From assembly GCA_048213135.1 (NCBI GenBank), contig PS015018.1:1-64000 (forward strand): 64,000 nt of DNA, given 5' to 3'. The stretch is from Reclinomonas americana ATCC 50394. Its lineage: Eukaryota. Made by a program: the position numbers and the translations under genes. The notes beneath the pieces are model-generated. The model made no database searches. It worked only from the letters and a program-made list of their open reading frames with translations, and was not told the origin of the DNA. This document shows positions 3,801 through 64,000 of the stretch, one piece after another. Within the stretch, counting starts at the first letter, position 1. Every line of letters starts with the position of its first letter.

Positions 3801-5184
3801 CACCAGCACCTCGGCCACGGACGGCTCGCAGGCCATGCCAACCACCAGTGGCTGCGCCCAGTGCACCGGCGAAAGAATCTCCGCACGCTGGCTGTGCTGC
3901 GCCAACCACGTCTCGTCCAGGTCCTCGTGTGAGGGCGCCATCAAGCGCAGCAGCCCAAAGGCCACCTTGCAGCACCAACGATTCGGCAAGTGGCCGAAAA
4001 AGGCGCCCAGCACGTGTGCGTCGCCGTTGCGCTCGACAATCGCATTGAGAGCGTCGGAAATGAGGCGCCTGCACAGACAGCGCAGTGAGACAAACGCGAA
4101 GCAGAGAGGCAGGACGATGAATCGGCACCAAACTCTTCGCCTTCGACATCCTCCACCGGCAGCTGCTCATTCAGCCGCAAGCCAGTGATGCATTCGATTG
4201 CCAGGCGATTCACCAAGCCGCGATCGACGCCGAGGAAGAACGACAGCGACAGCAGCGGCAGAGCGTTGGCGGTGGTGATCTGTGGAGGGGGAAGGAGAGC
4301 ATAAAGTGAGTGAGGGAGCACGCAAACATGCCACATGCAAGTGCACACGCAACATGCATATCGCCAGTGTAAAAGTACGCCAACAGCGAGTGCCACACAT
4401 GTGCCTCACGCGACAAGGTGCGCGGCAACACAACATCCAAATCCACCACACAACGCCGCACAGGGGCCGACGACGACGATGACGACGCCTTGTTGCGCTG
4501 CTTCTGCTGCTGCTTCCCAGTTAATCTCCGATCCTGCTGCTTGCCGCTCTCGCTTGCATCGGCCTCCGCAGCCGGAGCCGCCGCAGCCGATGCCGCTGCA
4601 TCAGTATCCACCGTGTTCAGGTCCTTGGCCACGCGCTCACGCAAATGATTGGCAAACCACGTCGACTGTAAAAACAGCATCGTCAGCTCCCATTGTCACA
4701 TCGGTCGTCAACAAAATGCAATGTTACACGCACCCCGTGGACGACAATGGGAATGTGCGCCAAGATGGAGAATCGATGGTGTTGACCGGCGGCTGCTGTG
4801 TAACACAAACACAAACGCAAACGCACAAAAAAGTGTGAGCCATTTCCCGCTGCACATGGCACTTTGACGACGACACACAAAAAAAACAACGCAACGATCG
4901 GGCAGCAGCAGGCACAAGTCGCAATGGCGGCCCTCATCCAGCGCACTGCGGTGGTATCCCTGGTCGCCGAAGGGTCCCACAGTGGCGGCCTGTGGGAGAG
5001 GCGGCGGCGGCTGCACTGCAGCGGAGGACGAGGACGCGGCCTGTGACAGCGACGGGAGAGGCGGTGGAGGCGGAGGTGGAGGCGGAAGTGCCGGTGGAGC
5101 AAGCGCAGAGGCGGGTGGTGGTGGGGGAGGCGGTGGTGGAGGGAGTGGCGGAGGAAGGACGTCGGAGGCGGGGTCGACTTCCAT
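881..5184 (-). CDS. Pro-rich BTB/POZ-domain protein, multi-exon; internal contig 1586-2623 is assembled in the opposite orientation
   Basis: Start MEVDPASDVLPPP at 5184. Spliced exons give BTB-like motifs (HCDLCLLLPD..FSILAHIPIVVHGSTWFANHL; VWHSLLAYFYTG; ITTANALPLLSLSFFLGV). Flipping contig 1586-2623 gives in-frame joins at both ends (FTLMAS-G-AAAGRSM and FPTGD-ISAMPPP). Stop at 881. Confidence 0.6.
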
Positions 5185-5387
5185 CTTGTCGGCGACCTTA
5201 TGTTCTGCGCACGCGGTGTGTATGTGTCGTGCGTGTCTCTCTGGCACAACACGTATCAACGCCAGTCACTCTCCCTTTGCGTGCGAGTGTGCGAGTGTGC
5301 GAATGCAATGGGGACAGACACGAGCGGCTCGCAGCAATCTGTCCAAGAAACTGTACGGCTTGATTCGCGGAAGAAAATGCGTTTCAC

Positions 5388-7394
5388 TCAGAAGTCGAGG
5401 TGCCACCTGAGGCGACCATAGTTGCACTCGTCGAGCACCGGCCTCCAGAGGGCGCTGTCGCGGCGGACGGCTATCATGTCGTGTACGCATCCGGGCGCTG
5501 ACGGGAAGGCAGTGCTTCGCTCCAGAGCCGTCAGATGCAGGCCGCACAGCTCGTGTGCATCCTGTCGAGAAGAAGTCAGCGGACAGGTGGTTGTGAGCGA
5601 GAGCTGTCTGTGAAGTTCCGTCGAACCTGCCACCACAGCCCGCTGACTGGAATGCACACGCCCACACCCAAAATGAACACGTCGAAACCGCGCTCATCGA
5701 GCCACGCTGCGAATTCGCGCAGCGTCGGCGACGGCATGGAGCCGATGGAGCGCGCGTGTTGGAATGGCCTGTGCTGGACTTGCGACAGTGCAGTGAATTC
5801 TGCACAAAGGAAAGAATCGGTGAGGGAGCGTCAAAGGGGGAATGAGTCGGGAGGGGAGGCGAATACCGCACCCTCATTCCAGAAGAGTCCGTACTCGAAC
5901 GAGAACAGGTCAATCTTGCGCTGCTGCAGCAGGCGTTCCATGCCCTTGACCACGTACGAGTCCCAGCCCTCCACATCAATCTGCGTGCACTCGAGATGAA
6001 CAAGAAGTGCGGCACAGCAGGCAGCTGGACTTGCACACCTTGATGTAAAAGATCTTTCGCCCCTCTGTCAGCAACGCCTTGGCCTCCGGATCGTTCTCCA
6101 CGAACCAGTCCAGGCGCACTGTGGGGATCGTGTCCACCGGCTCCTTGCTCATGCCGAGTTCCGTTTCACTCGTCGTCGGCTGTCGCAAGCTGCACGCACA
6201 CACTATGAGTGTTGTGAAAAGTCGCGCAGTGGATCTGCAAGCCACTCACCTGTACACGTTGCCGATCTTGTAGTTTGGATTCTGCAAGGAGAAGCGCTGT
6301 CGTCAACAGCAGCAGGCGGACGCTCGGCCTCATCACAAACACGCACACACACGTCTCACCGTGGTCAGTGTGTACAGAGGCTGAGCCTCGGCATTGCGAT
6401 CGCTCAATCCCACACGATGCGGCATCAATGCGCCGGGTGGCAACTCGGCCGCCGCAGACACCAGTTCGTTGAATGCCACCTCTCCAGGCTCGAACGCAAA
6501 CACACGTGCTCCGTGCTTTCCCAGCCGCTCGCCGAACATGACCGCATCGGAGCGATCGGCGATGCTGTGCGAAAAGTCTCCGGCGCCTGCAATGCCACAC
6601 TCATCGTGAGTGTCGGGGATCAGCGACAAGATGAGCGGCACTATCTTGCCACTCACCGACGTCGATCAGGATGGGCGGGTTGAACGCCGCTCGCTCCGCC
6701 TCGCTCAGCTTCAGCGACTTGTCCTTTTGCAGGCGGCGCCACAGACGACCGAGCTTGGTGTGGAAGGTCTTGAGCGGCCCGCCAAACAGACTGGCGGTGC
6801 GCGAGTAGTGCAGGCACAGGTGATGGTCGAGCAGCCAGTCGGCGAGCGCATCCCGCCACCGTGTGATTCGCTGCTGCTGCTGCAGTGCCTCCAGTCCGGC
6901 ACGCACCTCTGCTGCTACCGCCGGCGATGCTCGTTGCAGCACTGAGCATTCAGAGGGGGTGTGTGAGCAGGGGGGGGGGAGAAGAAAACAAGCGTGTCAA
7001 ATTGTCGGCGTGCCTTGTTCGACTTCAGCCGANNNNNNNNNNNNNNNNNNNNNNNNNNNNNNNNNNNNNNNNNNNNNNNNNNNNNNNNNNNNNNNNNNNN
7101 NNNNNNNNNNNNNNNNNNNNNNNNNNNNNNNNNNNNNNNNNNNNNNNNNNNNNNNNNNNNNNNNNNNNNNNNNNNNNNNNNNNNNNNNNNNNNNNNNNNN
7201 NNNNNNNNNNNNNNNNNNNNNNNNNNNNNNNNNNNNNNNNNNNNNNNNNNNNNNNNNNNNNNNNNNNNNNNNNNNNNNNNNNNNNNNNNNNNNNNNNNNN
7301 NNNNNNNNNNNNNNNNAATGTGCTCGAATGCACTTGAACACACAGAGAGGAGGGTGAGAGAGACGAGGAGGAAGAGGATGACCAGGCGCTGCAT
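5388..7394 (-). CDS. FkbM-family (Methyltransf_21-like) SAM-dependent methyltransferase with signal peptide, copy 1
   Basis: MQRLVILFLLVSLTLLSVCSSA signal peptide. Spliced motifs ILIDVGAGAG, VFAFEPG, VGLSD and KIFYIKIDVEGWD...FSFEYG are typical of FkbM. Ends YGRLRWHLDF*. First intron is GC-AG (6942-7013). Confidence 0.8.
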
Positions 7395-7493
7395 GTGCTT
7401 GAAAGAGTCGCTCGGAAATTTGATGAGTTTCCCGCCCTGCTGCTTGCTGTATCTGAGAAACGGAGGCTATAAGATGTACACTCTCTTGTTTGT

Positions 7494-9402
7494 TTAGTTG
7501 GCGTGCCACTTGAGGCGACCAAAGTTGCACTCGTCGAGCACTGGCTGCCAGAGTGCGCTGTTGCGGCGAATCGCCAGCATGTCGTGCACGCACCAGTACT
7601 CTGGATCGCGGTCTTGCGATACCATGTGCATGCCGCACAGTTCGTGTGCATCCTGTCGGCGTGGTAGTCAGCATGGTTGCTCAGCAGAGGATAAAAGGTC
7701 AACAAGCGAACCTGCCACCACAGCCCGCTGACTGGAATGCACACGCCGACGCCCAAGATGAACACGTCAAATTCGCGCTCGTCAAGCCACGCCACAAACT
7801 CGCGCAGCGTCGGCGACGGCATGGAGCCGACGGAACGGGCTGGCTTGAAGGCGTTGTTCCGCTTCATCTGGGTCAGTGTGGTGAACTCTGCAGGGCGTTC
7901 GGTGAGTGGGGAAGAGCAGCAGCGAGTGACAAAAAAGTAGAGAAGCACCGTCGTTCCAGAAGAGTCCGTACTCGAACGAGAACAGGTCAATCTTGCGCTG
8001 CTGCAGCAGGCGTTCCATGCCCTTGACCACGTACGAGTCCCAGCCCTCCACATCAATCTGCGTGCACTCGAGATGAACAAGAAGTGCGACACAACAGGCA
8101 GCTGGACTTGCACACCTTGATGTAAAAGATCTTTCGTCCCTCTGTCAGCAACGCCTTGGCCTCCGGATCGTTCTCCATGAACCAGTCCAGGCGCACCGTG
8201 GGGATGGTATCTACCGGCTCCTTGCTCATGCCGAGCTCCACTTCACGCGCCGTCGGCTGTCGCAAGCTGCACACACACAGAATAATCAACTCGAGCGCTG
8301 CGACGCGGAGAAACAAGAGTGAATTGGTGCCTACCCGTAGAGATTGCCAACGTCGTATGCGCTCTGCGAGAAAACAACCGTGGCGTAAGATCTGTGATTT
8401 CTTCTTCCGCAGGCCTGCAACAACAAATCACCATGGTCATCGAGTACAGCGGCTGCGCGTCCACGTTGCGATCGCTGAGTCCCACGCGATGCGGCATCAG
8501 TGTGCCGGATGGGAGCTCGGCAGCCGAAGACACCAATCCGTTGAATGCCGCCTCCCCCGGCTCGAACGCAAACACACGTGCGCCGTGTTTGCCCAGCCGC
8601 TCGCTGAACATGACTGCATCCGAGCGATCGGCAACATTGTGCATAAAATCGCCGGCACCTGCATTCATGCACGCCCCTCGCTCAGTGTGTGTGTATGAAG
8701 AGGAGTGACACAGCAATCGCATTCGCATCGACGCAACCGACATCAATCAGAATGGGCGGGTTGAACGCCGCTCGCTCAGCCTCGCTCACGTTCAGCGACT
8801 TGTCCTTTTGCAGGCGGCGCCACAGACGCCCGAGTTTGGTGTGCAGCGTCTTGAGCGGCCCGCCAAACAGACTGGCGGTGTTGGAGTAGTGCACGCAGTT
8901 GCGATGATCCGCCAGCCAGTCGGAGAGCGCATCCCGCCACCGCGTGATTCGCTGCTGCTGCTGCTGCGCCTCAAAGCCGGCACGGATCTCGGCGCCTAGC
9001 GCGGGAGGCAGTCGCGACACGGCTGCATTCCCACAAAAGAGCTGAGTTGCATGCAACAGGAGCGGCACATCTCTCGTCGTCAAGTCAAACCTTCCTCAAA
9101 CTCCACCGCCGGTGGCGACAGTGTGAGCGTCCCCACTGGCAGTTGCTTCGGAGCTCCTCCCTTGAGGCACGGAGCGAGTTCCTATCCATCATCACAACGA
9201 GTCAAACAACACAGGTCTCTCGCACACAGATGACAGGAGTGCTCAACACGCCGACCTCGTGAATCATCACAGCGACCACACTCTCAACGCGAAACACAAA
9301 GGCCTCTTCCGTGGCCGCCCGCTGCACAAAGTCATGCTTGGCATAGTAGTCCTTGGCTGCGCGCGAGAGAGATCGATTTCAACTTCGTTATCCCCGGGAG
9401 AG

Positions 9403-9472
<70 letters not shown>

Positions 9473-10363: not shown

Positions 10364-10432
<69 letters not shown>

Positions 10433-14700: not shown

Positions 14701-17700
14701 GTCGTACCCGGAGCCGGCCGCCGACGACGACTATAGCGACGATTCGGATGACGACCGCGCGAGTGATGCTTCGTCCTCGCTGCTGTCCATGCCGCTGCCG
14801 GCTTCGACCTCAGGTCTTTCGGTGCCTGGCTCCATGTTGGGTTCGGGAGCGACCACAGCCGAGATGCAGGCACTGCAGGACACGGTTGCGCAGCAGGTGT
14901 GTGGGTGTGGTGTGAGTGGGGCGGCCCCTGCTTCTCACCCTTGCTGTTGGCTGACACGCGATGTGCAGTCACAAGAGCTGGAGAGTCTCCGCATGCAATT
15001 GCAGCAGAGCGAGTTGCAGCTGTCCGACGCAAGGTCAAATCTGGAGACGGCCGCTGTCGGTGGTGTGGCTGGTGGTGCGGCGGGCGACGCAGTCAAGCAG
15101 TACCAGAAGCAGATTGCCCAGCTGAAGAAGCTGGTGTCCAAGTACAAGGAGGAAAACGCACAGTTGAAGAGTGGCGCCGCCGCCAGTGGAAACGGCGCTG
15201 CGTCAGCGGCTGCTGCGGCGCCACCGCCACCACCGCCGCCGCCACCACCGCCGCCGCAGGCCCCGACGCTTCCGCCAGAGGAGGTTGAGCGGCTGCGCGG
15301 CCTGGAGGCTGAGGTGGCCACACTGCGACAGCGTGTGGAGCTGGCCAAGCGCAAGGTCAGTTGCTAGCGCACCGCCAAATCGGCCACTTCACGTAATAAG
15401 CGCTCATTCCTCTTTCCTCCTTTTTTTCCCCCTCCATGTAGACTGGCGGCAGCACTCAGCGTCTCGGCAACGTCAAGCTTGCTGTGTGCGAGCTTCGTGA
15501 ACAGATGGAGGCCGCACGCAGCGAGTACGAGGGCACATCACGCGAGATCTATCGCATGATGAAGGAGACTGTGAAGGCACTGCCGCGTGTACTGGCATCG
15601 GTGCGATACNNNNNNNNNNNNNNNNNNNNNNNNNNNNNNNNNNNNNNNNNNNNNNNNNNNNNNNNNNNNNNNNNNNNNNNNNNNNNNNNNNNNNNNNNNN
15701 NNNNNNNNNNNNNNNNNNNNNNNNNNNNNNNNNNNNNNNNNNNNNNNNNNNNNNNNNNNNNNNNNNNNNNNNNNNNNNNNNNNNNNNNNNNNNNNNNNNN
15801 NNNNNNNNNNNNNNNNNNNNNNNNNNNNNNNNNNNNNNNNNNNNNNNNNNNNNNNNNNNNNNNNNNNNNNNNNNNNNNNNNNNNNNNNNNNNNNNNNNNN
15901 NNNNNNNNNNNNNNNNNNNNNNNNNNNNNNNNNNNNNNNNNNNNNNNNNNNNNNNNNNNNNNNNNNNNNNNNNNNNNNNNNNNNNNNNNNNNNNNNNNNN
16001 NNNNNNNNNNNNNNNNNNNNNNNNNNNNNNNNNNNNNNNNNNNNNNNNNNNNNNNNNNNNNNNNNNNNNNNNNNNNNNNNNNNNNNNNNNNNNNNNNNNN
16101 NNNNNNNNNNNNNNNNNNNNNNNNNNNNNNNNNNNNNNNNNNNNNNNNNNNNNNNNNNNNNNNNNNNNNNNNNNNNNNNNNNNNNNNNNNNNNNNNNNNN
16201 NNNNNNNNNNNNNNNNNNNNNNNNNNNNNNNNNNNNNNNNNNNNNNNNNNNNNNNNNNNNNNNNNNNNNNNNNNNNNNNNNNNNNNNNNNNNNNNNNNNN
16301 NNNNNNNNNNNNNNNNNNNNNNNNNNNNNNNNNNNNNNNNNNNNNNNNNNNNNNNNNNNNNNNNNNNNNNNNNNNNNNNNNNNNNNNNNNNNNNNNNNNN
16401 NNNNNNNNNNNNNNNNNNNNNNNNNNNNNNNNNNNNNNNNNNNNNNNNNNNNNNNNNNNNNNNNNNNNNNNNNNNNNNNNNNAATCACCCGATTTTTGCT
16501 GTCTTATTCCCGTCTTCTGCTCACTCGCGTGTCGTGCAGACGAACGAGTTGCTGGCCAAGTACCGCAAGGAGCAGCACGAGCGACGCAAGTTGTTCAACC
16601 AGCTGCAGGAGCTGCGCGGAAACATTCGTGTGGTGTGCCGTGTGCGTCCGCTCGGTGTGGCTGGCGGTGGCGAAACTGTGCCGTGTGTGGTTGTCGACGA
16701 CCAGTACGGTCTCACGGTGGAGGATCCAGCCAAGAATCGTGCGCAGTCGTTCGAATTCGACGCTGTGTTTGGTCCCGCATCCACGCAGCAGGCGGTGTTT
16801 GACGACATCAAGGCACTGTCGACGTCGGTGATGGATGGCTACAATGTGTGCATCTTTGCGTACGGTCAGACCGGTTCCGGCAAGACCCACACGGTGTGTG
16901 TAATTGGATAGAGCGGCGATCACAATGTGTCCTCACGACGTTTTATTGTCGTTGCAGATGGAAGGCGACAGACACTCAGAGCAGATGCGCGGTATCAATT
17001 TCCGCACCATTGCCGAGCTGTTCGAGTTGATCGACCAACGGCGGCCCGACTGGGAGTACGAAGTCGCCGTGTCCGTCATTGAGATTTACAACGACAAGGT
17101 GTACGATCTGCTCGGCTCGCGCTCCAATCCGCGTGAGGAATCGTTGCGTCTGCCACTCGACTGTTTCTTTCTGCTTGCCTACTGACACGCGCCTCTTTCC
17201 GCCGTCCCCACAGCATCGACATTCGTCAAACCAAGGCCGGTCTGGAGGCACCACAGTTGGTGCGCCGGCATGTGTCTGCCGTGCACGAGACGCTGGCCAT
17301 TCTCGACGAGGGTTACTCAAATCGCTGCGTGCAAGTCACGAACATGAATGAGCACTCGTCCCGCTCGCATTGGTGCGTTATCGTGCCCTCCTCTCTCTCT
17401 CTCTTGCGCTTGCTTTCCGATTTGAGGTGGTGCATCTTGTGCTGACGACCATTATTCTCGTGCTCGTGGCGATGCAGCGCTCTGCTAGTGTGGGTGGAGG
17501 GTGAGTTGGCTCGCATTCCGTGTTCGCTCGCTCGCTCTCTCTCACCGCGCTTCTTTGCAGGCTTCAACACCATTGCCGGACAGGGAGTGAGGTCACGACT
17601 GAACCTGGTCGATCTTGCCGGTTCGGAACGCATCAAGAAGACGGGTGCCACTGGCGACCGCCTGAAGGAGGCCCAGAATATCAACCTGAGTCTGTCGGCC

Positions 17701-22999: not shown

Positions 23000-24682
23000 C
23001 TAACTGCGTGTGGACGCTGACACCTCGCCCTGCTGTTGCTCCCTCTTCGTCATGTAGTTGTCGAGGCGAGTGCGCACCTCGTCGTACAGCTCCGGTTGTT
23101 GCTGCATGCGGCGCTCATACTCGGCAGCGTGCTTCTCCGACGCACACAGATCACGCATCTTGCTGAACGAGTGATGGCCGACCTGCGCAACTGCGTGGTG
23201 AGCTACGTGCAATCAAGAGTCATGAATGCGCTTTGCGCATGCACCTTACGAGCGGCCCAGTTGACGAGCCAGTCGGGAATCAGCTTGAGCTTGGGATCAA
23301 AATTGCTGTGCATTGGTGGCGACACACCGATTCACTTTCACGAGAACCTCTGACTTGGCAGACAGGAGCACGAACCTCAGCATGATCAAGCGACACGAGT
23401 CGCGAGTGAGTGGCGAGACGGTGAAACTGCGTGGCGTCAAATGTCAGGGCACACGGCCTCAACACCGCAACACAAGATCCGTGCACGCAACCCCGCGATT
23501 GGCATATCGATGCGCACAGTGCTCTTCTTGGGCGGTGGCAACGGCAGCGCACTGTCTGGCGAGCGTGGCGGTTTGAAGATGATCTTTTCGTACGACTCGA
23601 TCGTTTCGCCGACAACCACAAAAGCGCCGTGAGCCTCCAGCGCGTCGACGCCATAACCGTACACTGGAGATACGTGCATCATAAGAGAAAGAAAAGCTGA
23701 GTGAATAATCACCAGGGCGCAACACGTGCGACGCACCAACGCAATCGCGGTCGGAGATGATCGGCACACCAATCGCTGCATGCATAACGATGCGCGCGCG
23801 ATCGGGACGGGCCAACTCAACGCACTCGCGCATGTTTGGCACCCTACATGACGCGTGAGCATGAGGCAAACAGCGTACTCGAAACGGAAGCGAAAGCCTC
23901 GACAACAGCCACACGTACCAGTCCTTCCACAGATCCATCTCATTCAACACCGCAATCACCTTCAATGCACTGGCCGGAATGTCGCCCTCGATGCGCAGCG
24001 TCTGCAACGTCATGCCCGGCAGCGACTTCCAGCAGATGCGAATGCCTTTGGAGTTGTTCACCTCCTTCCACCCTGTGTTGCTGTGTGGTGAGCCACAGCA
24101 GAAGAAGGAGAAATACCAAGTGAAAAAACACGCCTTCCTCCTCGTACGTCAACGCGATAATCTGGTCAAAGCGCTCACGTTCCACACGAATGGTCCCAAA
24201 CTTGCTGTCCGCGCGTCGCAACTCCTCCAACATGGCGCGACTGTGACTTTCTGTCACCCGCGCATCAGTTGCGTGCTCTCGTGCTCTCTTACACACACGC
24301 TCTCTCTCACCCGCGGGTGTCTCCGGATGCTGTGCAACCCACTCCAGTCGCTGCGTGACTTTGCGCAGTGTGTCATCCGCCTTGGTAACAAACAAACACA
24401 ATCAATCAGTCGGCGGCGCTCATCGTGCACATGGAAAGGCAAGCAAAAAGACGCAACATGAACAAGCATTTCCTCATGAAACGGCACCATGATGGCATCG
24501 ACGACACGCTGCCACTCGTCGGCCTCCGCCGAGTGCACCCACGCTGGTGGCACACGAGCGCTCACATCCTCGAACAAGAGCTCCTCCTCCAGCCACGCGC
24601 ACAGTTCGGCCCACTCTGCCATGTGCGCTGTGCTTGTCACACTGTGCGACATGCTGCTGCTGCCGCCTGAGCCCGACGCCAT
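23000..24682 (-). CDS. START/SRPBCC-domain lipid-binding protein
   Basis: Spliced: GWKEVNNSKGIRICWK...LRIEGDI...VIAVLNEMDLWKDWVP...PIISDRDCV...GFTVSPL...NFDPKLKLIPDWLVNWAARK, the START signature. Has one GC-AG intron (24073-24133) and one GTTGCG donor (23491). Confidence 0.8.
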
Positions 24683-24794: not shown

Positions 24795-27700
24795 TCATCG
24801 TCGACGCAGCGAGGCGGTGGAACGAGGCGTTCGAGCCGAGGATCGCGGCTGTCGGAACGAGAAGTCAGTCATTTCACAATTTGCGTTTTCCCTGCTGGTT
24901 TTTTTGCATGAACGCAACTGACGATGAGTTGGAGCCGGGTGGCGGAATGGGCGAGCCTCCGCGACGAGGAATGGGTGGCGGTGGCGGTGGAACAGGCGAG
25001 CCGTTGCCGCTCACGTCGTCGCCTTCGCGGTCGTCGACGGAGCGCGCACTGGAGGGCATGAAGGGCTCCTGGAGCAGTGGACTCGGTGCCTGCGTAAAAG
25101 CAAGGTATAGTGTGAGCAAAATCATGAAGAGCGCGACCGATGAATGCATCTCCCACGCACCCGAGGTGACGGGGTGTTCCACCGACGAACACCAGGCGCT
25201 GCTGCTGCTGCTGTGGTCACTTCGGCAACGTCCTCCAGCGGCGGCATGTCGCCCGGCTCCGCGACGGCGTTCGCCACTGCCTCTTGAGGCGAGTGCGGAA
25301 CCTCGGGTGCCATGTCACTCGCCATCGACGCGGCAGTGAGGGCGGCGGCGGCTGCCTCACGCCGCACACGCAGAGGCGATTGCACCGCTCGCGCTCCCTG
25401 CGCCAGCGACTCGAAGAACTCACGCTTGTCGGCGAACGTCATACGACCAGGCGACACTTCGCTGTCGTCGTTGGCGCTCGAGCCGACTGCGGCCGCAGCG
25501 GCCGACGAAGCAGCACCGGCCACGGCACTGGACGTCACCGTACTGAGGTCCAGTTGGGTCGCGGAGGGCGACTTGAACGCCCCCCCACTCTTGACGTCTT
25601 GATCCTCAGACACCACTGGAGCCTCGACTTCCAGCAGTTTCACGTCACTCTCCGAAATCACCACCAACGGTGGTGGTGGTGGTGGTGTTGGAGGCGACGC
25701 AGGCGGCACTGACTGTGCTGGCGAGGCCACCGACGAGTCGGCGCCGTGCTGTGCATCCATGTCGCTGGCCACGTGTCGTGGTGAAGGCGGTGGAGAGAGG
25801 GAGCGTGGCGCGGGACGTCCGCGCTTGGAACGGCGTGTCGCCGCTCGCCGCGGTGCCACCAGCACTGGCGGCTCGGTGGAAACCGAGAGCACCGGCACAG
25901 CCACTGCAGGTTGTGGGTTGGGTTCAGGGACAGTGGTGGCGGCGGCGGCAGCAGCAGCAGCAGGAGCGGCGGCGCTGAGAGCTGCAGCATAGACTTGGGC
26001 GTGCGCCTGAGCGGGTGACATCGAGTGCGCCGTGGGACTCACGCGCTCCATCTGGCGAGCCAGCGGACGCAAAACTGTGTGGCACACGAAGCAGTGGTTG
26101 GAAGCACGCTCGAATTGTCGTTTTTGACTCTCCGCACACACTCACCAGCACTTCGGCGACCGGCGTTTCGATGCAGCCGCTCATACACATTCGCCGTGGA
26201 CTCCTCCGGCGCCCCTTGCTGGTGATGTGAGTGATTGTCCTCGGTGCTTTGCGACGTCAACAGGTCGATGTTGGTAATGTCTTCGTTCGCCGCATCCCCG
26301 GCAGTGAGCATGTACATGGCGTCCACAGGCACAGCTGGTGGCTGTGGGCTGTAGAACTCGACAGGCTGCACCCCCTCGCCCCGATCCTCCTGAACACACG
26401 CATGAGCAACAGCAAATCTATCAAGCGAGTGGCACGCACAAACACACACCATCGAGTCATTTCCGAGGCCACCGGCGCCACCGCCCATTGTTTCCGAGTG
26501 CGATTCGTCAGCCGACGTGGGCGACAACGGCATGGAGCCGTCATCCGCAGCGGCTGTACCCGACGGTTGTGGCGTTGACAAGGTGCGTTCCGCCAACTGC
26601 GACACAAACATGAGCACCCGATGCATCAATGAAGAAAAAGCAAGACAATTCTGACAGCGTACCAGACGAAGTTCGTGCATGGCCGTCTGCAAGAGTCAGT
26701 CACAAAAGCATGTGGTCAGCCAGCGAACAAACAAACAAACAGAAATTGTGAATGGCACACAACACCAACCAGTGACTCGGGAACTGGGGGCGGTGGCAGC
26801 AAGCGGGCCTCGCCCTGCTCGCGCTGTCGCTTTTGCGACACTCGGCGTCGGTACCGACCGACCGAGAGCCACCACACCAGCAACACCACCAGCACGATAA
26901 AGATGATGCCGGCGAACGGAATCACCAGGTACCACAACCACCAACGCGAGTCGGAGCGCACAACCACCGACGTGTCGTTGACTGAGGTCGACGTGCTTCG
27001 AATCACTGCATACGTGGCATCCGCGCACACGTACGCAGTCAGCAAGCTGCTTGTGCGATCGTACTGCTGCGTGGCCGTGGTCGGCGGGCAGCCAGTCTCC
27101 GACAACACGTAGGTTTGAGTGCTCGTATCGTAGCGATACAAGCGCGGGTCCGCCTCATCCGCGGTCGACGACACAGTGAGCGTGGAGACGGCTGAGGCTG
27201 ACCACGTTGTGGCGGTGCGCGTTGTAGAGGAGGCAGATGACGACTCGGAGCGCGAGGGATTCGAAGTGGTCGTGGAGTTTGACGACGACGACGAAGACGA
27301 AGAAGAGGTACTGCTCAGTGTAAAACCGGCGAGTACGGTGCCTGACCGTGGGGACGGTGGCGATTGCAGTCCGTTGAGAGAAACCGAGGTCGATCCAGAG
27401 GTGCTGTCGGTGACACCATGATAGTGAGCGCACAAGGAAACATCAGAGACCGACTTGCAACAACTCAGTGAGTGACAAACCCAAACGTAGTGGCCGGGAA
27501 CATGATGGATACGGACGAAGTGTTGCTGCTGGATGCTGTAGAGCCGCTGATCGACGGCAGTGGCACAGACGGCAGCGTCACCGATGAACCACCTGTGTAC
27601 ACATGATATTCAGCCACAAACACACATGTCTTCGCGATGTGCGTGACAAGCACACTCACCGAGGCCGTCGGTACGCGACGGATCCTCCACGTTGACAAGA

Positions 27701-42700: not shown

Positions 42701-45098
42701 NNNNNNNNNNNNNNNNNNNNNNNNNNNNNNNNNNNNNNNNNNNNNNNNNNNNNNNNNNNNNNNNNNNNNNNNNNNNNNNNNNNNNNNNNNNNNNNNNNNN
42801 NNNNNNNNNNNNNNNNNNNNNNNNNNNNNNNNNNNNNNNNNNNNNNNNNNNNNNNNNNNNNNNNNNNNNNNNNNNNNNNNNNNNNNNNNNNNNNNNNNNN
42901 NNNNNNNNNNNNNNNNNNNNNNNNNNNNNNNNNNNNNNNNNNNNNNNNNNNNNNNATGTGTGCATGCGAGTGAGAAATTCACAAACGACATTGGCTGCGG
43001 ACACAATACAATACACGCAACCATACAGAGTAAAGTTGGCCTCGGTGTAGAGGTCGGACGACACAGACGCGCGTACACGAATGTACATGACAAATGGCAG
43101 CGGAGCGTCGAGGTTGGGCATGGAAGCCACCGCAATGACGCCAGTGGCTGGGTCGGCAATCTTGAAGTAGCTGTTGTGGGTATCGAGAGTGCCTGCTTGC
43201 AAAGTGTACGAGACAGCGCGGCCGAGATTCAAGCGTGTGCTCGACAGCGTGCCCACAGAAGCATCGGTGGCGGCCGGCAGGAGAATCACCGGACTCGGTG
43301 GAGTCAGTTTGACCTCCAGCGGGGGATACAGCACTGTACCGCAAGCAGTGAGTAACAGACTCCACAGAATTGGTGTCGAAGGCGAGCAAAGTGACGCACC
43401 CTCATCCACAGTGAACTGCGTCGACAGAGTGAGCTGCGGACGACCAGCGTCGACCACCTGGATTGTAAGTGTGACGGGCCCCACTGGCGGCGCCGAGCCA
43501 ATCACCAGCTGCGAGGCGCCATTGATGCTGAACGCGTTTGGCAGACTCTGCGCCGTGATGCTGAACGTGTAGGCGGCCGTGGTGTCGTCGGTGACGCGAA
43601 TGGAGGCGACCACTGTGTTGGCCACACTCTGCGGCGGATACTGCAGCGTGCTCAGGTCGATGCGGGTCGGGGCATTGTCGACTGCGTGAGTGCACGCACG
43701 CAAATCGTGAGTTGTGAGACGCAAACGGTCGGCAAGTCGACGGTCACGCAACTGGCAAACACAAATGTGCGATCGACAAACTGTGCAAAATAAAAAAATG
43801 CGGAGAGGAGAGTGTGAGGGGGCTGGGAAGTTTGAGTGTGACAGGGAGTTGAGCGGAAGGGAGGGATTACCAGTCCAGCAGAATCCGTCACACGCGCACG
43901 CACGCTGAACTCGGAAAAGTAGGTGCCAACAGGAATGTCGGCGGCACCGACCTGGAGCTGGTTGCCGACAATGGCAAACAAGGCGGTGTGCGCAGCGTCC
44001 GTCATGCCCATGGTCACCAGCGAGAAAGTGAGGGTGTCAGTGGGGTTTGGATCGGTGGCGGCAAACGTGCCCACGGCGGTGTTTGCCAGAAGACCGCCTG
44101 TGCGAATGAGCAGCGGCGTCGCAGCAGGCGAAAAAGTGAACGTGTCCGGCGCCATCTGCTTCTCCGACAGCACAATCGACGAGGTGGTTGAGGCACCGGC
44201 CGAATCGGTCACAGTGATCTGCAACGACCTGACGCCCTGCAGACTCATGGCGTTCACACGCAGCTCATTCCCGTTGGCCACCGTGAACGAGTCATTGTCG
44301 GCAACCATCGGCGCCAGCGAAAACGAAAAGCGATCGTTGGGATCCGTGTCGACAGCACGCAGACTGCCGACCAAATCACCGACCGCGGAATTCGGCACGT
44401 ACGTGGCGGTCGACAAGACCACCCCGGTTGGTGCCTGATTCAGCACCACCTCGTACCGCTCCTCCGTGAACTCGGCCAGCGTATTGGTCACACGGACACG
44501 AAAGCGCAATGGAGACGGCGTGCCCGCCACCAAGTCCACAGCCAGCTAGTAAAAATGCACACGCATGAGATTGGCACGACAAAGAAGAGGAAGAGGACGC
44601 CATGGATGCATACCGTGACCGTGGCCACACCGAAAGCATCGGTCGCGGCGGTGATCGTCAGCTTGGCATTGTCGGTGCTGCCGAGGCCGGCAACCAGAGT
44701 CAATGTCAACGCAGTGGGTGGATCCACTGGATCCGTGGGTGCCAGCGATGCCACGATCACTGGCTGCTCGACAATCATCAGAATCGGAGAAATGGCAAGA
44801 CGACGATCACAACACAACGCAACTGTGGTCATAATGTCCGTCGGCAGTGAGATCACGCCGGCGGTGAAGGCAGATGCGTTAGGCGCTACACGAACACACG
44901 CAGTGAGCATCGAAATCCCCTATTCCTATTGCGTGACGATCAGACGCAACGAGCCGCCGCGACGCTCACGATCAGTGTGGTGAACAGCAGCAGGAGCAAG
45001 CTTATTGCTGCTGTTGTTACTGTTGTTGTTGTGATCATTGATCTCCTCCTCGCTGGAAACGACATGCGTCGTCGCAGTGCGTTTGATGACATGCTCAT
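24795..45098 (-). CDS. giant single-pass adhesion receptor: signal peptide, ~30 cadherin-like repeats, ~3 FN3-like domains, Ser/Thr-rich stalk, TM helix, Pro-rich cytoplasmic tail; contig 40983-42105 is inverted in the assembly
   Basis: Repeats of the form VNxAPTxxTLS...GTVVGxLxATDxD/N...TFxYxLxxGxxDNxxFxIxGNxLxV...VRVRVTDxxG. FN3-like VTLSW...Y...GLLPNTPY and YEARVRAANSVGES. TM WWLWYLVIPFAGIIFIVLVVLLVWWL followed by RYRRR (about 26850-26945). Phase-1 introns lie at most repeat borders. The exact stop is tentative. Confidence 0.8.
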
Positions 45099-45771
45099 TT
45101 TTGTCAGCGACTCCCCGTCCGATGCTCTCCCTCTCTGATTGTGAGATTGCTTGTCGTCGTCGTCGTTGTGTCTGAGGGACGCGCTGATCTCTCTTTCTCG
45201 CTCACTTTCTGTGACACACACACGCAACACAAAAACCGTGGCCACTAAAGAAAGGAAAGAGGGCGGAGAGCGAGTGTTGCTCGTCGCGAATGTATTGGTA
45301 CGGGTATTCGGACACATTGCTCGGCGGGACTCGGGACGATGAGGATTTTTGTGGGCGAGAGGGAGCGAGGCAGCGGCTGGCAGTCAGAGGGGAATGCGAC
45401 GAGGAATGGGAAGTGATGAGCGGGGTGGAGAAGTGCGTTGGCGCACTGTCAGCCATTCCACTGCAAGAAAAATGACAGATTTCGTTGCTTGCACCCCGCA
45501 GAGTGCTCCATAGATCTCCTCAGCGCAGCCACGGTGTAACGCAGAATGTGGTCAGTGATACACTCACTCGCGACACCTGTGCGGGGACTTGCCACTTGCA
45601 CGCGACGTCGACTTCGAGAATATTCACAACACACGAAGGAAGTGCGTGGTTTTGCAATCGCGATCGCGCGCAGGTGGTCGTGGACGTGAATCGCCCTCCC
45701 CACACTACCGCATGAGGGGGAAGGTGTTTGCCAAGCTGCGAGTGTCCTGCTGCTCATTTCCGAACGCTCGC

Positions 45772-47942: not shown

Positions 47943-48250
47943 TCATGAGAATGTGGCTAACTTTTTGCTTACATTTTACACGCCGGGAAGAGAGAGGCGG
48001 GGAGATTAAGTAACGAGAGAGAAGCGGGGCGACGATTGGAGAAATGGCCGGCATTGCCGGCTCGCATAGCAGGGGTATTACACGAGGGAGGGAGGGAGAG
48101 AGAGAGAAACACACATATCGGTAGATTGATTGGATAGAGAGGATGCCGGTTGGGAACACTCACTCGCAGAACCACCGCAATCAGGGGAGATGACACATTA
48201 ACGGTGTCTCCGACGCTCGCAAATATCTGGTACGCGCGCGTAGGCGTAAA

Positions 48251-49603
48251 TCACCGCATCTCGTGGTGAAGGCGGCGGAAGAATACCAAATCCATCAGTG
48301 CCAGCACCGAGGTGTCGTGCGCGTCGCGCACAGACGTACCCGGCTGCGGCGACGCACCCAACGGCGGCAGCAGCATCGGCGACTGTGGAAGTTGACGAAC
48401 GTGCTGTGACTGTGCTTGTTGCAGTAGCAGTAGTTGCTGCTGCTGCTGCTGTTGTTGTTGTTGTTGTTGTAGTTGCTGACTCGCCAAGCGTGTGGCCACC
48501 GGAGAAGAGAGCAGCAGCGTTGAATCCGCGGCTGTCGCCGACGGCATCGGTAGTGAGGCGAGCATCGGCGGCACCGACGGTCTGGTGGTGACTGATGAAA
48601 CAGCCGGTACTACGACACGCTGCATTGTGGGTGACAAGCCGGTGGGTACTGTGGTCGTGGTGCTGGTGCTGCTGGCCATCATCATAGCCGGAGTCACCAT
48701 CGAAGCGCCACCGCTGCGACTCATGAATGCCGACGACGGCGACCGTGACGAGGAGCTGACCAGGCTGGCACGCCGCGCCTGGGATGGTGAGTCCTCGCCC
48801 TCGGGCCTGTCATCGTCGGACGCAGAGTCCGACGGTCCATACGGGTGATGCCGATCCGACGCAGCAACACCCGGCGACCGACGGCGACCGCCCATCACCG
48901 CCGCAGAATACGCCCGCCGTCCTCGCTTGCCTTTTGGCGGCGAGTCCTGGCCATAAGTCTGCGATAACAACAACAGCGCAATCAGTTGTCCGACCACAGT
49001 GCAGTGATGACGCTGGCTGGTTTCACACATACCGGTGAGTCGGGAGCGTCATCGACACCCGAGCCTGGTGTCTTGGCTTTCCGTCGTCGGTTCTCGAACC
49101 ATACCCTGCGACGCCCGCAATACTTTGCTGTGAGGCGCGCGGAAACAACTGTAACGAAAACAAACACACGCAACGTTACACTCGTCAGAGTGCGTCCGAA
49201 TGCCGCGGCAATCTCCTCCTTCTCGTGCCTTGTCGGGAACGAGTTGGTCTTGTACATGGTCTCCAGGATGTGCAGCTAGCAGCAGCAGCAGGCCCATCAG
49301 TCACAGTGACAAACACATACAGTCTCAGTCTCAAAAAATGAATCCGTGCACAAACCTGCTCTGGCGTGTACTTTTTGTACGAGCGCGACTTGTGCTGCTG
49401 CGAGCGCGCCTGTATGCTCTGCACAAGCGACGCCGCCGTGGCAGACAGAGCCGCTGCCGTGGACAACGTGGACGATGATGAGGGTGAGGCAGGCATGGTA
49501 CCAATGGTGATTGGGGGCGCCACAATGCGCATCAAGGACGGCGGCTGTTGATGAACAGGAAAGTCGGTGTTGCGATTGCCACTTGGCTGCTGGTCCATCA
49601 GCA
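48251..49603 (-). CDS. non-TALE homeodomain transcription factor with Ser/Gln-rich tail
   Basis: Spliced homeodomain KSRSYKKYTPEQLHILETMYKTNSFPTRHEKEEIAAAFGRTLTSVTVWFENRRRKAK has standard spacing (L16, Y20, W48, F49, N51, R53). Poly-Q tract near 48435-48478. Start and stop are approximate. Confidence 0.85.
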
Positions 49604-53893: not shown

Positions 53894-53928
<35 letters not shown>

Positions 53929-55439: not shown

Positions 55440-55473
<34 letters not shown>

Positions 55474-55533
55474 ATCATCCTGTTCTCTGCCTTCTCAATC
55501 TCCTTCTCCTTCTCCTTGCTGCCGACAACGAAA

Positions 55534-56211
55534 CTTGCGACGAATGGCACGAGTGCGCTTCACACGGAGATCCAACGGCAGCTGGCTCTTGCCGGCAAAC
55601 GCCTTGCGTGTGTTGCTGCGGCGCTTGGCATTCAACACCGTCAACACGCGAGCAATGTTCTTGCGCACAGACGAGCTGCGATACACAAAACACACAAAGT
55701 CAACAACACTGCTCCATCGCCCGTCCTCCTCCTCCTGCTGCTGCTGCTGGCACGCAACATCTTGCCGAGCTTGGAGGCACCACCGCTGGTCACTTGCGCG
55801 ACGCGCAGTTGTGCGAGCTCCTGCTTGAGCTCGGAAAGCTGGCGCTGCAGCTCCTCAGGTGACTTCTCGCGGAGCGAGTACGCAGAGATCTTGGCTGTGT
55901 GCGTGCGTGTGCGTGTGTGAGTGACATGACATGTGCGCGCGCGAGTCATGGCCAACAACAACAACAATCGCAGCAGAAGCAGAAGCACACAAAGGACGAG
56001 TCCTCTCTTTGCTCTCTCACTGTGTGCACGCGATGCGCGGGACCACACCACACTCGTACGTGAGCGTGCGTGCGTGTGGGCGCACATGCATGCACATCAG
56101 ACGCACTCTCTCTCTCTCTCTCTCAAGCCTGCCCTGCCCCAATCCGTCTCTGTTTTTTTCGTTCACACGCAGCACGATGCTCCCTGTCCCTGTGTACCCT
56201 ACGCAACTCAT
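55534..56211 (-). CDS. RPL35: 60S ribosomal protein L35 (uL29); final exon not visible
   Basis: ATG-A|intron 55895-56207|[47 protein letters not shown]|intron 55676-55758|[19 protein letters not shown]...[16 protein letters not shown]. The expected C-terminal ~25-30 aa was not found. Confidence 0.92.
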
Positions 56212-56552: not shown

Positions 56553-57231
56553 ACGGAAGAGTCTCTTGAAGATCTTCTTGACGATCGACAAGAAGTCGCG
56601 TGGGAATGGTTGATCTGCCCACAAAGAGTCAGTCACTTGCAGCGTGAGTATGGATGACGAACAGCTGCTCCCTGCCCTCTCTCTGCTCGTGAGTGCACGT
56701 GTGCTCACCTGGCTTGGAGGGGAAGATGGTTTCTTGTGACACCGTGTCGCCAATCCATTGCATCAGCAGCTCGACATACTCCGGTGCCGACACCTTTACC
56801 GGCTTCTTCACCTTGTCGCCATCCGCCCACAAGTACTCGTACTGCAAAACAACAACAACAACAACAACTGTGAGGGGGGAGGGAAAAAACACCCCCCACA
56901 CACGCTGCTGAGTGAACTGCACCTTGGGACCGGCATTCATCGTCGGGCACGTGGTCTCATCGCAAAACTCAGTGATGCTTCCGTACAACAAGTTGGTCGT
57001 GTTGTAAAAGTCAATGGCTGCGCCAAAACGGAACGGATGGAGAGAGGAGGAAGTGAGCACAGGAGAGCAAGGAGAGTGTTCTTTGCGAGGATTGACGAAT
57101 TGTGAGCTCAACTGTTGACTGCCAACCACTCATTCAGTTCCTCTCCGGGTGGAAGCACCACAGCCGCTCGCAAGTCACCGCTGCCGAGGGTGGCCTTGGC
57201 CAGCTTGTGCAATGAGAACTGCTTGGTGCCC
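56553..57231 (-). CDS. MOB1: MOB kinase activator 1, central exons (first exon missing, probably in a gap)
   Basis: [98 protein letters not shown]...[18 protein letters not shown]. Confidence 0.95.
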
Positions 57232-58963: not shown

Positions 58964-60869
58964 ATGCGCCCGATTCAATACCTGACCGAGGATCACAAGG
59001 TCCGCGTTCGAGAAATCCGCTCCATGACCTGGCTGCAGCACACTCGCGATGAGGTTGGTCGCGTTCTTTGTGTAGTGGAGAATGCCAACATCGTACTGTG
59101 TCTGTAGAAGCGATGGGGAAGATTTCATTCTCCTTCGTTGATCGTTGTCTCTCTCTCTGTCGCCAGATCTACGACGGTGCCTACGAGCTGCTTCTCGATT
59201 CGCCGCACATGCCACCGACGGTGCGCGTGGCCGACGTCATTTACGAGGTGCTCATGCGACGGCATGTGCACAAGAGCGTGGCGGATTTGGTGCGCTCGAG
59301 CTTGAGTGGCACACGCAGTTTTCCGTGGGGGGCTGACGCGGTGATTTCTCCTTGCGTTGCAGGTGTGGTACGACATTGCGCAGGCGATTCGTCGCCGTGC
59401 CGTGGGCGAGGATCGATCGCTGCGCCAGCTTTATCGCTTTCTGCGGAATGTGAACACGGTGCCGGAGTTCATGTGCTACGCCTACGTGCGGGCGCTCACG
59501 GCGGCCAAGCTCGGTGCGCGAGACATTCAGTTGGCTGTGCCTGGTATCGATGTTGCGTGCCGTGCAATGCACGCCCACTCTCTTTTTCCTCCCGTCCCAT
59601 CTCATTGTGCGCGCAGTCCTCGTCGAGGAGAGTCGTGCACTTTGATCTGCCACTGGAGCTCGACGTGCACGACGTGACGGAGCAGCTGTTGCCGACACTG
59701 CGACTACTGCCCGGCCTAATTCCCGAGACCGCTGTGCAGCGCATTACCGCCTTTGTTGCGGAGAAGCAGCAGGCGCATGCGCACTTGGGAGCGCCGAGCA
59801 CCGTTGCTGCGCACGATCTGCTGCAGCTGGTGCTGGAGCACGCCGACTACGACGCCATGTTTGCTGGCTCGGCGGCCGGTCTGCAGGACGCGGCACATGA
59901 CTTGGTGTTGACCGGTTCGTTGTTGTCGCCACGGCATGTGCGGCGGTCGCATGTCGCCGGCGAGGAGTACGGCAGTGATCATCCGTCGTCGTTGCTGTCG
60001 GGCTCCTACGGCACCTCCGCGAAGCTGTCGCCGCCTGCGCCGCTGTCGTTTAGCTCGTTCCAACAGCCGTCGCCACGGTTGCATCAGCAACGGCAGGTGG
60101 ACTTTGACGACGGCGACGGTGGTACATTCGGCGAGTCTGCCGACGACGAGTACAATGTCGACAGTGACGACGATGATTACGATGGGGTGGAGGACGACAG
60201 CGGCGACGACGACGACGGTGACATGCAGCCAACTCGCACCATGCTGCCCATGTTTCCGGTGTGTGTGTGTGTTTTTTCGAGTGCCACCACTTGTTACTCT
60301 GTGTGGTATCCAGCACTCACCTCCCTCCTCCTCGCGCAGGATCACGACAAGATCACGCAAGATCTCTTTCGTGAACTCGAGTCGATTGTGGGACCCGGTC
60401 GCTTGACAGCACTTTCGACCGCGCGTGGCTCGTCGACCTCACCAGGCAGCAGGTGCGTGTTGCTTGTGCGCTCGTGTCGTTGTACTTGGCTAGTTGAGTA
60501 TAACATTGTGCTGTTGCCAATGTGCAGCGTGCCGGTGCGACCGAAACCGCAGTCTGTTGCGGGCGGCCTCAGTCGTGAGTGTCTACGTCAGCAGCATGCA
60601 CTGGTGTAATATTTCTCTTCTCACTATCATCGATGTGTGTGCGCGTGCGTCACAGCCGGAAGATCAAGTGGGGCCACGCGTGCTGGATCGGATGGGGTGA
60701 GTAGATCAAATATCCGTTCTCTCGCGCCTCGCTCTCACCACTCGCCGCACAGCCTGTGATGATTGACATTTCCGCCCCTCCGCGGAATGAGTTGGCGGAG
60801 CGTGAGCAGTTTCTGCGGCAGGTGGAAACAGCGGCCGACGAACTCACCCGACGCGAATCAGAACGCGTG

Positions 60870-60905
<36 letters not shown>

Positions 60906-61945: not shown

Positions 61946-62000
61946 AACCATGCAAGTCAATTTTCCCGCCAGCATTTTGTTCTGCATCGCAAACCACCCC

Positions 62001-62343: not shown

Positions 62344-62415
<72 letters not shown>

Positions 62416-62551
62416 AGTAGTAGTAGTAGTAGTAGTGTGTGTGTGTGTGTCGACGACGGTACGGTACCGGTACGTACGTAGTAGGTACGGGTACGACGAC
62501 GACGCGTCGACGTACGTCGTCGACGTACTTCNNNNNNNNNNNNNNNNNNNN

Positions 62552-62643
<92 letters not shown>

Positions 62644-64000
62644 CAAGAGGTTGATGATGAGTTGTCTTGTGCGTGCAGGACGGCTATGATGAGGGCGTGG
62701 ATCGCGTGGCGCAAGAGTTTGTCGCCTCGCATAGCATGCGACACGTGCAGCACCCGCGCGTGCTCATTCGCAGTGAGGGCGCCGAGTTCATCGCCGACAT
62801 GTACGCGTTCGTGCTGGAGCATGTGTTTGGCGAGTTTCCCGAGACCAAGGCATGACGAGGGAGGAGAGGTGTCATGATGGTTTTTCGTGCTGGCTGACTC
62901 GCTGGCGTGCTCGTGCACAGCATGCTATTATCATGGAGGATGATCTGGAGGTGGCCGCGGATATTTTGTGGTACTTTGCCATGATGGCACCGCTGCTCGA
63001 TCGTGAGGAGGGCGAGCACACGTCCGTGGAAGTCGACGCCACTGTCATGGCCATCAGCGCCTACAACGACAATGGCTTCGAGGGCCGTGTGCGCTTCACG
63101 AATCAGATGCATCGCACCAACTATTTTGTCGGTATGTTGCTTCTCTGCTCTTGTGACCGATGTGTGGACGTACGACCCACCGCCCCACCACTTCTGCTGC
63201 AGGACTGGGTTGGCTGTGCAGTCGGTGGCTGGCGGAGGAGCTGTTGCCGCAGTGGCCGAGTACGCATTGGGACATGTGGATTCGCAAGTCGGCCATTGCG
63301 AAGAATCGTGTGACGCTGTATCCTGAAGTGAGTCTCCCTCGTTGTTGTGTGGGAGTTGTCTGCTGAGGTTGTCGCTGCTGCAGATCTCGCGCGTGTATCA
63401 CTTTGGCGAGGTTGGCACGCACACTTCCCTCGTGCCGACAACCATGTATTCGCGCATCGTGTTGGCCAGCAGTGCCGCCAGTTGCGTCGCTCTCATGTTG
63501 TGGAGGACCATAAACAGTAGATCTCATGGTGAGCGGGCAGGAATTCTGGACTGGAGACGGTACCGAGAGGCGGACTATGACGCCTTCTTGCAGCAGCAGT
63601 TGGTGTCGGCGGTGAGCGTGTCCACCATGGACGAACTCGAGGCCGTGGCCGACATGGTCACGTCGCAGCCGGTGGTCATGTGGCTCTCTCTTGGAAAAGA
63701 TGAGGTTTCGTGCACCACCACCTACCAACCTACCCTCCTCTCCATTCTCTTACATGACTGTCGGTGCAGGAAATCTGGCAATTCGTCGCAAGTGTGTTTG
63801 AGCTGTGGCCCAACAGCAACCCCATTCGCAACTCCTACAAGGGTTCGTGGATACTGCGTGTGGGAGTGTGTGTGCCCTCGGCGGCCCATTAGGGTGTGGC
63901 TTTCCTGACTGCAGGTGTCATTCCACTGTGGTATCGCGAGAGACGACTGTACTTTGTGCTGGACACGTCGCCGTTTGCCACTCTGCGACCTGCTGTGGTC
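62001..64000 (+). CDS. GT13 beta-1,2-N-acetylglucosaminyltransferase (GnT-I/POMGNT1-like), 3' partial
   Basis: N-terminal signal anchor; PIAVIAYNRPDYLRRTLESL, IYQDG, AIIMEDDLEVAAD, AISAYNDNG, RTNYFVGLGW, WPSTHWDMWIR and YPEISRVYHFGEVG are GT13 motifs in the expected order. Confidence 0.9.
62348..62642. repeat. (GA)n microsatellite within a GT13 intron
   Basis: GA tracts on both sides of a 20-N gap. Confidence 0.85.

Follow-up and report, generated by a model that had tools for sequence, protein, structure and literature searches.

On the current view, two steps decide where an intron is cut at its 5' end, with U1 pairing coming first and U6, U5 and Prp8 second. In human, donors with a shifted register are a rarity; they were reportedly described by Roca and Krainer in 2009, and a bulge register of human 5' splice sites is said to have been described by Roca et al. 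in 2012. According to PMC4856993, 68 human sites (54 after curation) out of 201,541 are predicted to use the bulge(+2/+3) register, and all validated non-canonical registers together amount to 1.5%. PMC11732430 and 10.1101/2022.04.05.487178 distinguish two major classes of 5' splice site, AG//GU (U5 loop 1) and //GURAG (U6 ACAGA box), and a term search of a pan-eukaryote survey of donor preference (10.1101/2023.05.04.539401) found none of the words shifted, bulge and register. Literature searches for GTTGCG or GUUGCG together with splice or intron returned primers and unrelated RNAs alone, and those on non-canonical registers in protists or in genomes rich in introns yielded no relevant work, supplementary files lying outside the scope of both. 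Here we report on 64,000 nucleotides of Reclinomonas americana ATCC 50394 (contig PS015018.1, positions 1 to 64,000; the whole stretch is called the window below), in which an initial annotation had noticed introns that start with GTTGCG or GTTGAG and had read them as the ordinary donor consensus, with G at +5, displaced by one base, perhaps the mark of an altered spliceosome.

Judged from the sequence, these introns belong to the U2-type GT-AG kind but carry a specific 5' signal of a second sort, N^GUUGCGU or rarely GUUGAGU (^ marks the splice junction), which makes up an estimated 15–17% of the introns in the window. The second donor class is frequent and its dependence on the last base of the exon (position –1) is real, while the notion of one and the same consensus moved by a base proved only partly true. 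The GTTGCGT-type donor, normally a very rare kind of splice signal, seems to be common here. In the human shifted-register sites, as PMC4856993 describes them, the cut falls at GU, the block complementary to U1 is set one base deeper into the intron, and the +1G of the intron stands opposite C9 of U1; the same arrangement is proposed here, and GUUGAGU folds in this way on the textbook U1. The difference is that here a single heptamer occupies about one-sixth of the introns and that its commonest form (GCG) is a poor match to the textbook U1. The layout GU-U-RxGU may also be read in the manner of the bulge(+2/+3) register, with one U looped out of a normal donor, only U being tolerated here; the frequencies differ, with 15 of 99 called donors in the window against 68 of 201,541 predicted in human. 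A trade-off between the last exonic bases and +3 to +6 of the intron recalls the AG//GU and //GURAG classes, but these keep one register, whereas here the downstream block has moved by one base.

The window, 64 kb from a eukaryotic draft scaffold, has a G+C content of 58%, is dense in short introns of about 60–100 nt with CTCAC/CTGAC-type branch words and CAG ends, and contains 23 N gaps totalling 10.9 kb (17%). Introns were called with a dynamic-programming gene finder of our own, which combines self-trained codon log-odds with a heuristic acceptor, branch and length score; a first version lacking the acceptor and length model was too noisy. In the donor-blind run GT was all that the program knew of donors, and in a second, self-trained run it used hexamer donor scores learned from its own output. 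The donor-blind run called 99 introns, among which GTTGCG was the commonest donor hexamer (13 introns) and GTTGAG occurred twice. GTTGMG (M being A or C) was found at 15 of the 99 called donors compared with 82 of 7394 GT sites (1.1%; binomial p = 4e-13), and the 15.7-fold enrichment of GTTGCG was the highest of all hexamers. The bare words showed no enrichment in the window: GTTGCG occurs 27 times on the plus and 35 times on the minus strand (62 in total), GTTGAG 9 and 11 times (20), and GTTGGC and GTGGCG are commoner. The self-trained run placed GTTGMG at 19 of 107 introns, two of which were later dropped, and the initial figure of about a fifth of about 100 introns agrees with this range.

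All 20 coordinates listed by the initial annotation carry the claimed word (GTTGCG at 17, GTTGAG at 3), and the preceding base is A at 12, C at 4, T at 2 and G at 2, exactly as it had counted; position +7 is T at 16. Twelve of the 20 were recovered by the donor-blind finder and 13 by the self-trained run. Among those missed, the donors at 38143 and 43021 have their 3' ends in N gaps, the upstream exon of 39677 is lost in a gap, and the first exon before 56207, at four bases, is too short for the finder to see; the missed donor at 49174 was confirmed by Pfam spacing instead. Four of the 20 are unverified calls. Three further GTTGCGT donors, at 4353(–), 8737(–) and 59552(+), lie beyond the original list (Table 1). 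The heptamer proved specific: of the 30 GTTGCGT copies in the window, 17 are donors called by the initial annotation or the finder (11 by the blind run alone), while the ordinary heptamers GTGCGT and GTGAGT are used at 7/84 and 7/71 copies. No called donors were found in the window among GTTGTGT (0/17), GTCGCGT (0/10) or GTGGCGT (0/22), nor among donors of the GTTTTG type.

Apart from their starts, these introns looked like their neighbors. All 23 begin with GT, and of the 21 with a visible 3' end 19 close with CAG and two with TAG. A CTSAY-like branch word lies 10–50 nt before the AG in 20/21 (median 22 nt), compared with 47/52 of the +5G introns (median 20 nt), the finder having rewarded such words equally in both donor classes, and the median lengths are 70 nt (GTTGMG) and 71 nt (ordinary). 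An assignment to the U12 type was rejected. U12-type introns are marked by an RTATCCTT donor and a TCCTTAAC-like branch site near the 3' end; here the donors read GTTGCG/GTTGAG, and ordinary introns are matched in the branch words (CTCAC, CTGAC, CTCAT) and how far these lie from the AG, in length and in the closing CAG.

Several borders were fixed by conserved proteins. Exon pieces flanking four introns were aligned to Pfam profiles, and all frame-preserving, stop-free G[TC]..AG pairs between the aligned blocks were enumerated. In RPL35 (Ribosomal_L29) the exon before intron 2 covers the profile up to position 39, position 40 falls on the split codon, and the exon that follows begins with 41; among 12 candidate pairs, the required six residues were given solely by GTTGCG with the acceptor at 55676. 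In MOB1 (Mob1_phocein, 28^29^30 contiguous) GTTGAGC is the donor in both candidate pairs, of which the one spanning 95 nt alone yields the required single residue. In the homeodomain (profile 44^45^46) 14 pairs were possible, and the required eight residues came solely from GTTGCG with the acceptor at 49106. The GTTG donor is thus the sole GT-AG solution in these three genes, as had been claimed. For the kinesin motor the claim held in part: the upstream exon reaches profile position 146 and the downstream exon starts at 153, and among five frame-preserving pairs GTTGCG is the one GT donor, the other four being GC donors; continuity of the profile, however, holds only to within about two residues of the loop. 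A metagenome scan with the MOB1 exon returned two contigs at 68% identity. The mRNA-like MOB1 homologue from the metagenome (L001; poly-A end, intron-free) reads NEWLACKTVDLFN unbroken across the junction of intron 57018..57112 and TAGANYEYKWADN over that of the second MOB1 intron, for which Pfam positions 60^61 are contiguous and one pair alone, with the donor G^GTGCAGT, leaves no extra residue. Removal of the introns restored the conserved protein exactly in RPL35, MOB1, the homeodomain, the FkbM-like paralogue B and, by internal paralogy, the cadherin linkers.

Two of these genes showed further peculiarities. In the 3' part of RPL35 (55440–55560, –) the frame runs into a stop past ..RAIRRK, SKEKEKEIEKAENR followed by a GA repeat is read in the next frame, and a normal C-terminus was not found around this stretch; a draft indel or a further, last intron could account for it. 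Upstream, a putative intron 1 was placed at the sole ATGN^GT within 500 nt of exon 2, a position suggested by this word and not forced by homology. The homeodomain (48985–49275, –) has the motif WFENRR, in which position 50 is E in place of the usual Q.

Ordinary +5G donors usually follow an exonic G (35 of 45 in the blind set), and the same base precedes only 2 of the 15 GTTGMG donors (Fisher 1.5e-5), which bears out the proposed tie between the class and exon ends lacking a –1G. The reported excess of A (12/20) is correct as a count, but the preference is largely an effect of paralogy: outside the cadherin linkers (n = 15) the base is A at 5, C at 4, T at 3 and G at 3 sites by hand count. 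These linkers belong to one or more very large cadherin-like genes at 29079–45456 (–), in which most repeat linkers hold a phase-1 intron and some are intron-less; one cadherin-like exon retrieved only cadherin clusters from the ESM Atlas, a lead rather than proof. The intron sits at ..T-E/P/Q^x-N/D-x-A/P-P, where the last base of the exon is the first base of the split codon. Where this codon starts with G (Val, Ala, Asp), 12 linker introns have ordinary or weak donors and none has GTTG (0/12); with A or T as its first base (Ile, Ser), GTTGCG or GTTGAG was found in 7/7 (Fisher 2e-5). With two gap-truncated sites added, the counts are 1/13 after G and 8/8 after A or T (p = 4e-5), and since the linker introns are paralogous both p-values overstate independence. 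Within these paralogues the intron interiors have wholly diverged and only the first 7–10 bases are kept, which argues for selection on the donor signal. Spliced linkers equal the intron-less ones of the same genes in length, e.g., FVLT-VNHAP, and the exon end ..TVLTLA before the gap-truncated donor at 38143 matches the exon end before 43752. Linker donors that follow a G are often weak downstream (GTACAACG, GTGAAGC, GTACTCC), as is GTGCAGT of the second MOB1 intron; in GTACAACG, GTGCAGT and GTGAAGC this resembles the AG//GU class.

Table 1. GTTGMG introns and donors in the window, with two comparators (–1, last base of the exon; blind, called by the donor-blind finder; new, outside the list of the initial annotation)
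Feature	Coordinates	Strand	–1	Intron start	Length (nt)	Phase	Remarks
Intron, same gene as 4796..4895	4280..4353	–	T	GTTGCGTG	74		blind; new
Intron	4796..4895	–	C	GTTGCGTT	100		blind
FkbM-like paralogue A intron (comparator)	6587..6656	–	G	GTGAGTGG			ordinary donor; homologous to 8659–8737
FkbM-like paralogue B intron	8659..8737	–	G	GTTGCGTC	79		new
Kinesin motor intron	17143..17213	+	C	GTTGCGTC	71	2	blind
Intron, gene without Pfam match	23427..23491	–	G	GTTGCGTG	65		blind
Possible intron near gene 3' end	24849..24918	–	A	GTTGCGTT	70		unverified
Cadherin-like linker intron	31461..31524	–	A	GTTGCGTT			..VTLTE^i^NLPP; blind; intron-less linker length
Cadherin-like linker intron	32107..32189	–	T	GTTGCGTC			..NINQ^s^NEAP; blind
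Cadherin-like linker intron	36482..36544	–	A	GTTGCGCA			..FTLTE^i^ALPP; blind
Cadherin-like donor, putative	38075..38143	–	A	GTTGAGTA			3' end in N gap 37614–38074
Cadherin-like linker intron	39258..39320	–	A	GTTGAGTA			..VVLTE^i^DVAP; blind
Cadherin-like linker intron	39603..39677	–	A	GTTGCGCA			^i^DNAP; upstream exon in N gap
Cadherin-like linker intron	40128..40214	–	A	GTTGCGAA			..IVISE^s^NRAP; blind
Cadherin-like donor, putative	42956..43021	–	G	GTTGCGTG			3' end in N gap 42106–42955
Cadherin-like linker intron	43682..43752	–	A	GTTGCGTG			..FVFA^i^DNAP; blind
Possible in-frame intron	44764..44823	–	A	GTTGCGTT	60		unverified
Intron after signal-peptide-like exon, cadherin-like gene	44886..44950	–	C	GTTGCGTC	65		self-trained run alone
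Homeodomain intron	49106..49174	–	C	GTTGCGTG	69	2	
RPL35 (uL29) intron 2	55676..55758	–	T	GTTGCGTG	83	2	
RPL35 intron 1, putative	55895..56207	–	A	GTTGCGTA	313		after ATG+A
Second MOB1 intron (comparator)	56842..56922	–	G	GTGCAGTT			neither +5G nor GTTG; has –1G
MOB1 intron	57018..57112	–	A	GTTGAGCT	95	1	
Intron	59552..59616	+	T	GTTGCGTG	65		blind; new
Possible intron	63481..63540	+	A	GTTGCGTC	60		called in both runs; without homology support

A direct comparison of the two donor types was offered by three paralogous genes at 5831–6941 (–; A), 7494–9356 (–; B) and 45772–48848 (+), which we take to encode FkbM-type methyltransferases, Pfam having given no match for the one exon searched. The tandem copies A and B share 87% mean identity in the alignment, and the same codon (D-V-G^A-G-D) hosts G^GTGAGTGG in copy A and G^GTTGCGTC in copy B. 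Both signals are thus interchangeable at this position, where both follow G, and the comparison with copy A fixes the border of the intron in copy B. The second donor of copy B is apparently degraded (G^GTGATTT). A metagenome scan with the alignment of the FkbM-like exon gave no matches.

As to how the signal is read, for U1 and U6 we infer rather than observe, and we give about even chances to the assumption that the ordinary spliceosome reads GUUGCGU in a register displaced by one base. In this register, the +1G of the intron would take the slot of the exon's last G opposite C9 of U1, +2U would be mismatched, +3U would pair with A7, and GCGU would fill the slots of +3 to +6; equivalently, one of the two U's at +2/+3 would be bulged out. 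Cleavage would still occur at GU because U6, U5 and Prp8 would fix the cut later. Since the signal would bring its own G, an intron would be possible behind an exon whose last base is A, C or T; for ordinary donors in the window a G at the exon end is almost always required. No base other than T will serve as the extra one: G at +6 combined with a different base at +3 was not enriched among donors (13/99 vs 17% background), and a general tolerance of one-base bulges was rejected on this ground, although single cases occur, among them the forced MOB1 donor G^GTGCAGT. A bulge that leaves C9 free for the –1G predicts that this G is favored, contrary to what was found (2/15). The extra T is specific and the T at +7 mirrors that at +6 of ordinary donors, as a bulge register would have it, but the –1G is lost and the spectrum at +4/+5 is unlike the ordinary one. 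CA precedes 6 of the 23 GTTGMG donors, as in CAG^GU read in the shifted register (p = 0.002, hand count). Taken together, the loss of the –1G, the strict T at +3, the T at +7 and the preceding CA agree better with a shifted register than with a bulge with C9 free.

Several observations weigh against the displaced register or limit its support. Folded on the textbook U1 5' end (AUACUUACCUG; PMC4856993), the GUUGAGU sites pair exactly in the shifted register (–5 to –8 kcal/mol), but the GCG form reaches only –0.6 to –2.7 kcal/mol, compared with –9 to –14 for ordinary donors. Of 24 sites folded on this end, from which the organism's own U1 may differ, six took the shifted register, three were canonical or bulged, and 15 folded in neither displaced register. 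Ordinary pairing with the textbook U1 would favor GUUGAGU over GUUGCGU, and the opposite was seen: the ratio of GCG to GAG is 13:2 among the finder's GTTGMG donors, against 5:9 in ordinary donors (p = 0.008), and 20:3 among all 23 GTTGMG sites. The correspondence between +7 T and +6 T upholds one part of the idea of a displaced consensus, whereas the excess of GCG and the lack of GTTGTG or GTTTTG members show that shifting the ordinary consensus by one base does not by itself reproduce the class. A –1G is not excluded either, the donors at 8737, 23491 and 43021 following G. Nine of the 20 listed sites are paralogous copies of one cadherin intron position, so the count of about 20, although the sites are real, does not stand for 20 independent events. 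Moreover, the frequencies come from a crude finder applied to a single 64-kb window with 17% N, and the finder misplaced some ordinary donors whose true positions are 17373 (G^GTGCGTT, kinesin), 38948 (G^GTGAGGA, cadherin linker) and 4733 (G^GTGCGTG); the share of 15–17% is therefore an estimate, not a measurement.

It is possible, though we consider it somewhat unlikely, that the introns are real and that their signal is read by a matched partner, namely an altered U1 5' end, a further variant of U1 or some UUGCGU-specific protein. A U1 that differs from AUACUUACCUG by G/C in place of two pseudouridines would serve as an example, as its pairing with GCGU would then be strong enough to tolerate a bulged U. 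Such a partner would account for GCG far exceeding GAG, contrary to the preference of the textbook U1, and for the heptamer specificity (17/30 copies being donors). It is also consistent with the extra internal copies of TTGCG in GTTGCG-type introns (7 in 1377 nt, whereas ordinary introns have 3 in 3502 nt; p = 0.007, small numbers), which could be back-up donors, an enhancer or chance. Against it, ordinary donors vary at +3/+4 (GAG, GCG, UUG, ACG, GUG), as with a standard U1, and eukaryotes are known to vary hardly at all in the 5' end of U1. An Rfam scan of the window at gathering thresholds and at E ≤ 1 found no U1, U5, U6 or other snRNA gene, the window-level output consisting of two chance-level matches alone (MIR7526, isrG). 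That genome-wide about one-sixth of the introns carry a dedicated GUUGCGU start read by such a partner, and not by a slipped U1, is the more doubtful proposition. If true, it would amount in effect to a third class of spliceosomal intron signal beside the U2 and U12 types, one for which no exonic G is needed.

We regard it as very improbable that the class is an artefact of the gene models, with nearby GTxxG as the true donors and GTTGCG a coincidence. The GTTGCG donors at 14885 and 60556, called in the self-trained run only, do have in-frame +5G alternatives within 30 nt and were dropped, and the calls at 24918, 44823 and 63481 are without homology support. For 24918 three frames are possible, and the finder favors another donor for this acceptor, GTCGCG at 24965. 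Of the two introns that the initial annotation had itself called less certain, 44823 can be read through without a stop and was called by neither run, and 63481 was called by both. On the other side, the enrichment came from a finder blind to the motif, and the control words were left unpicked in the window (GTTGCC 0/53, GTTGCA 0/43, GTTGTG 0/58). An in-frame, open +5G donor within 30 bases exists at only one of the 20 listed sites (49174), where Pfam spacing rules it out; the donor at 44950 has no in-frame alternative within 30 nt.

Still less credible is a reading as GC-AG introns with their start three bases further in (GTT^GCGT...), always in frame and with one codon added. GC does stand at +4/+5 of every GTTGCG site, and the spacing of the kinesin loop fits both readings, but the added codon would leave RPL35 with seven residues instead of six, the homeodomain with nine instead of eight, and the FkbM-like copy B with one more than its paralogue A, and it is impossible at the three GTTGAG sites, the forced one in MOB1 among them. 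The uniform 5' end and the gapped draft assembly might recall mobile introner copies with a GTTGCGT end of their own, or a homopolymer T error in GTGCG donors, yet both are extremely unlikely: an all-against-all blastn of 23 introns found no match past the first 9–10 bases, and a sequencing error would keep the preference for –1G (seen at 2/15) and cannot account for 57% of one heptamer's copies.

Regarding the remaining features of the window, Pfam recognized no family in the exons flanking 4895 and 23491, where BTB-like and START-like motifs may be present. A cadherin-like coding piece on the plus strand (40983–42105) lies between two N gaps amid the minus-strand cadherin-like exons and is probably a contig misoriented in the scaffold. 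Two long open reading frames called coding by the finder, 18274–19104 (–) and 21354–21947 (+), had no relative at E ≤ 0.001 in a collection of 5.8 billion proteins and are either lineage-specific or non-genes.

Donors at which the two steps of cut-site selection disagree by one base are natural probes of the hand-over from U1 to U6, U5 and Prp8, and in human such donors are too rare and too varied for bulk study. A genome with one heptamer in about 15% of its introns would supply natural test cases by the hundred, and some of these would come as paralogous introns for which donor class and the last base of the exon are the sole differences. The signal also illustrates one way in which codons with a first base other than G can be accommodated at an intron position. 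In this genome, gene finders trained on just one donor matrix will overlook such introns or place them wrongly.

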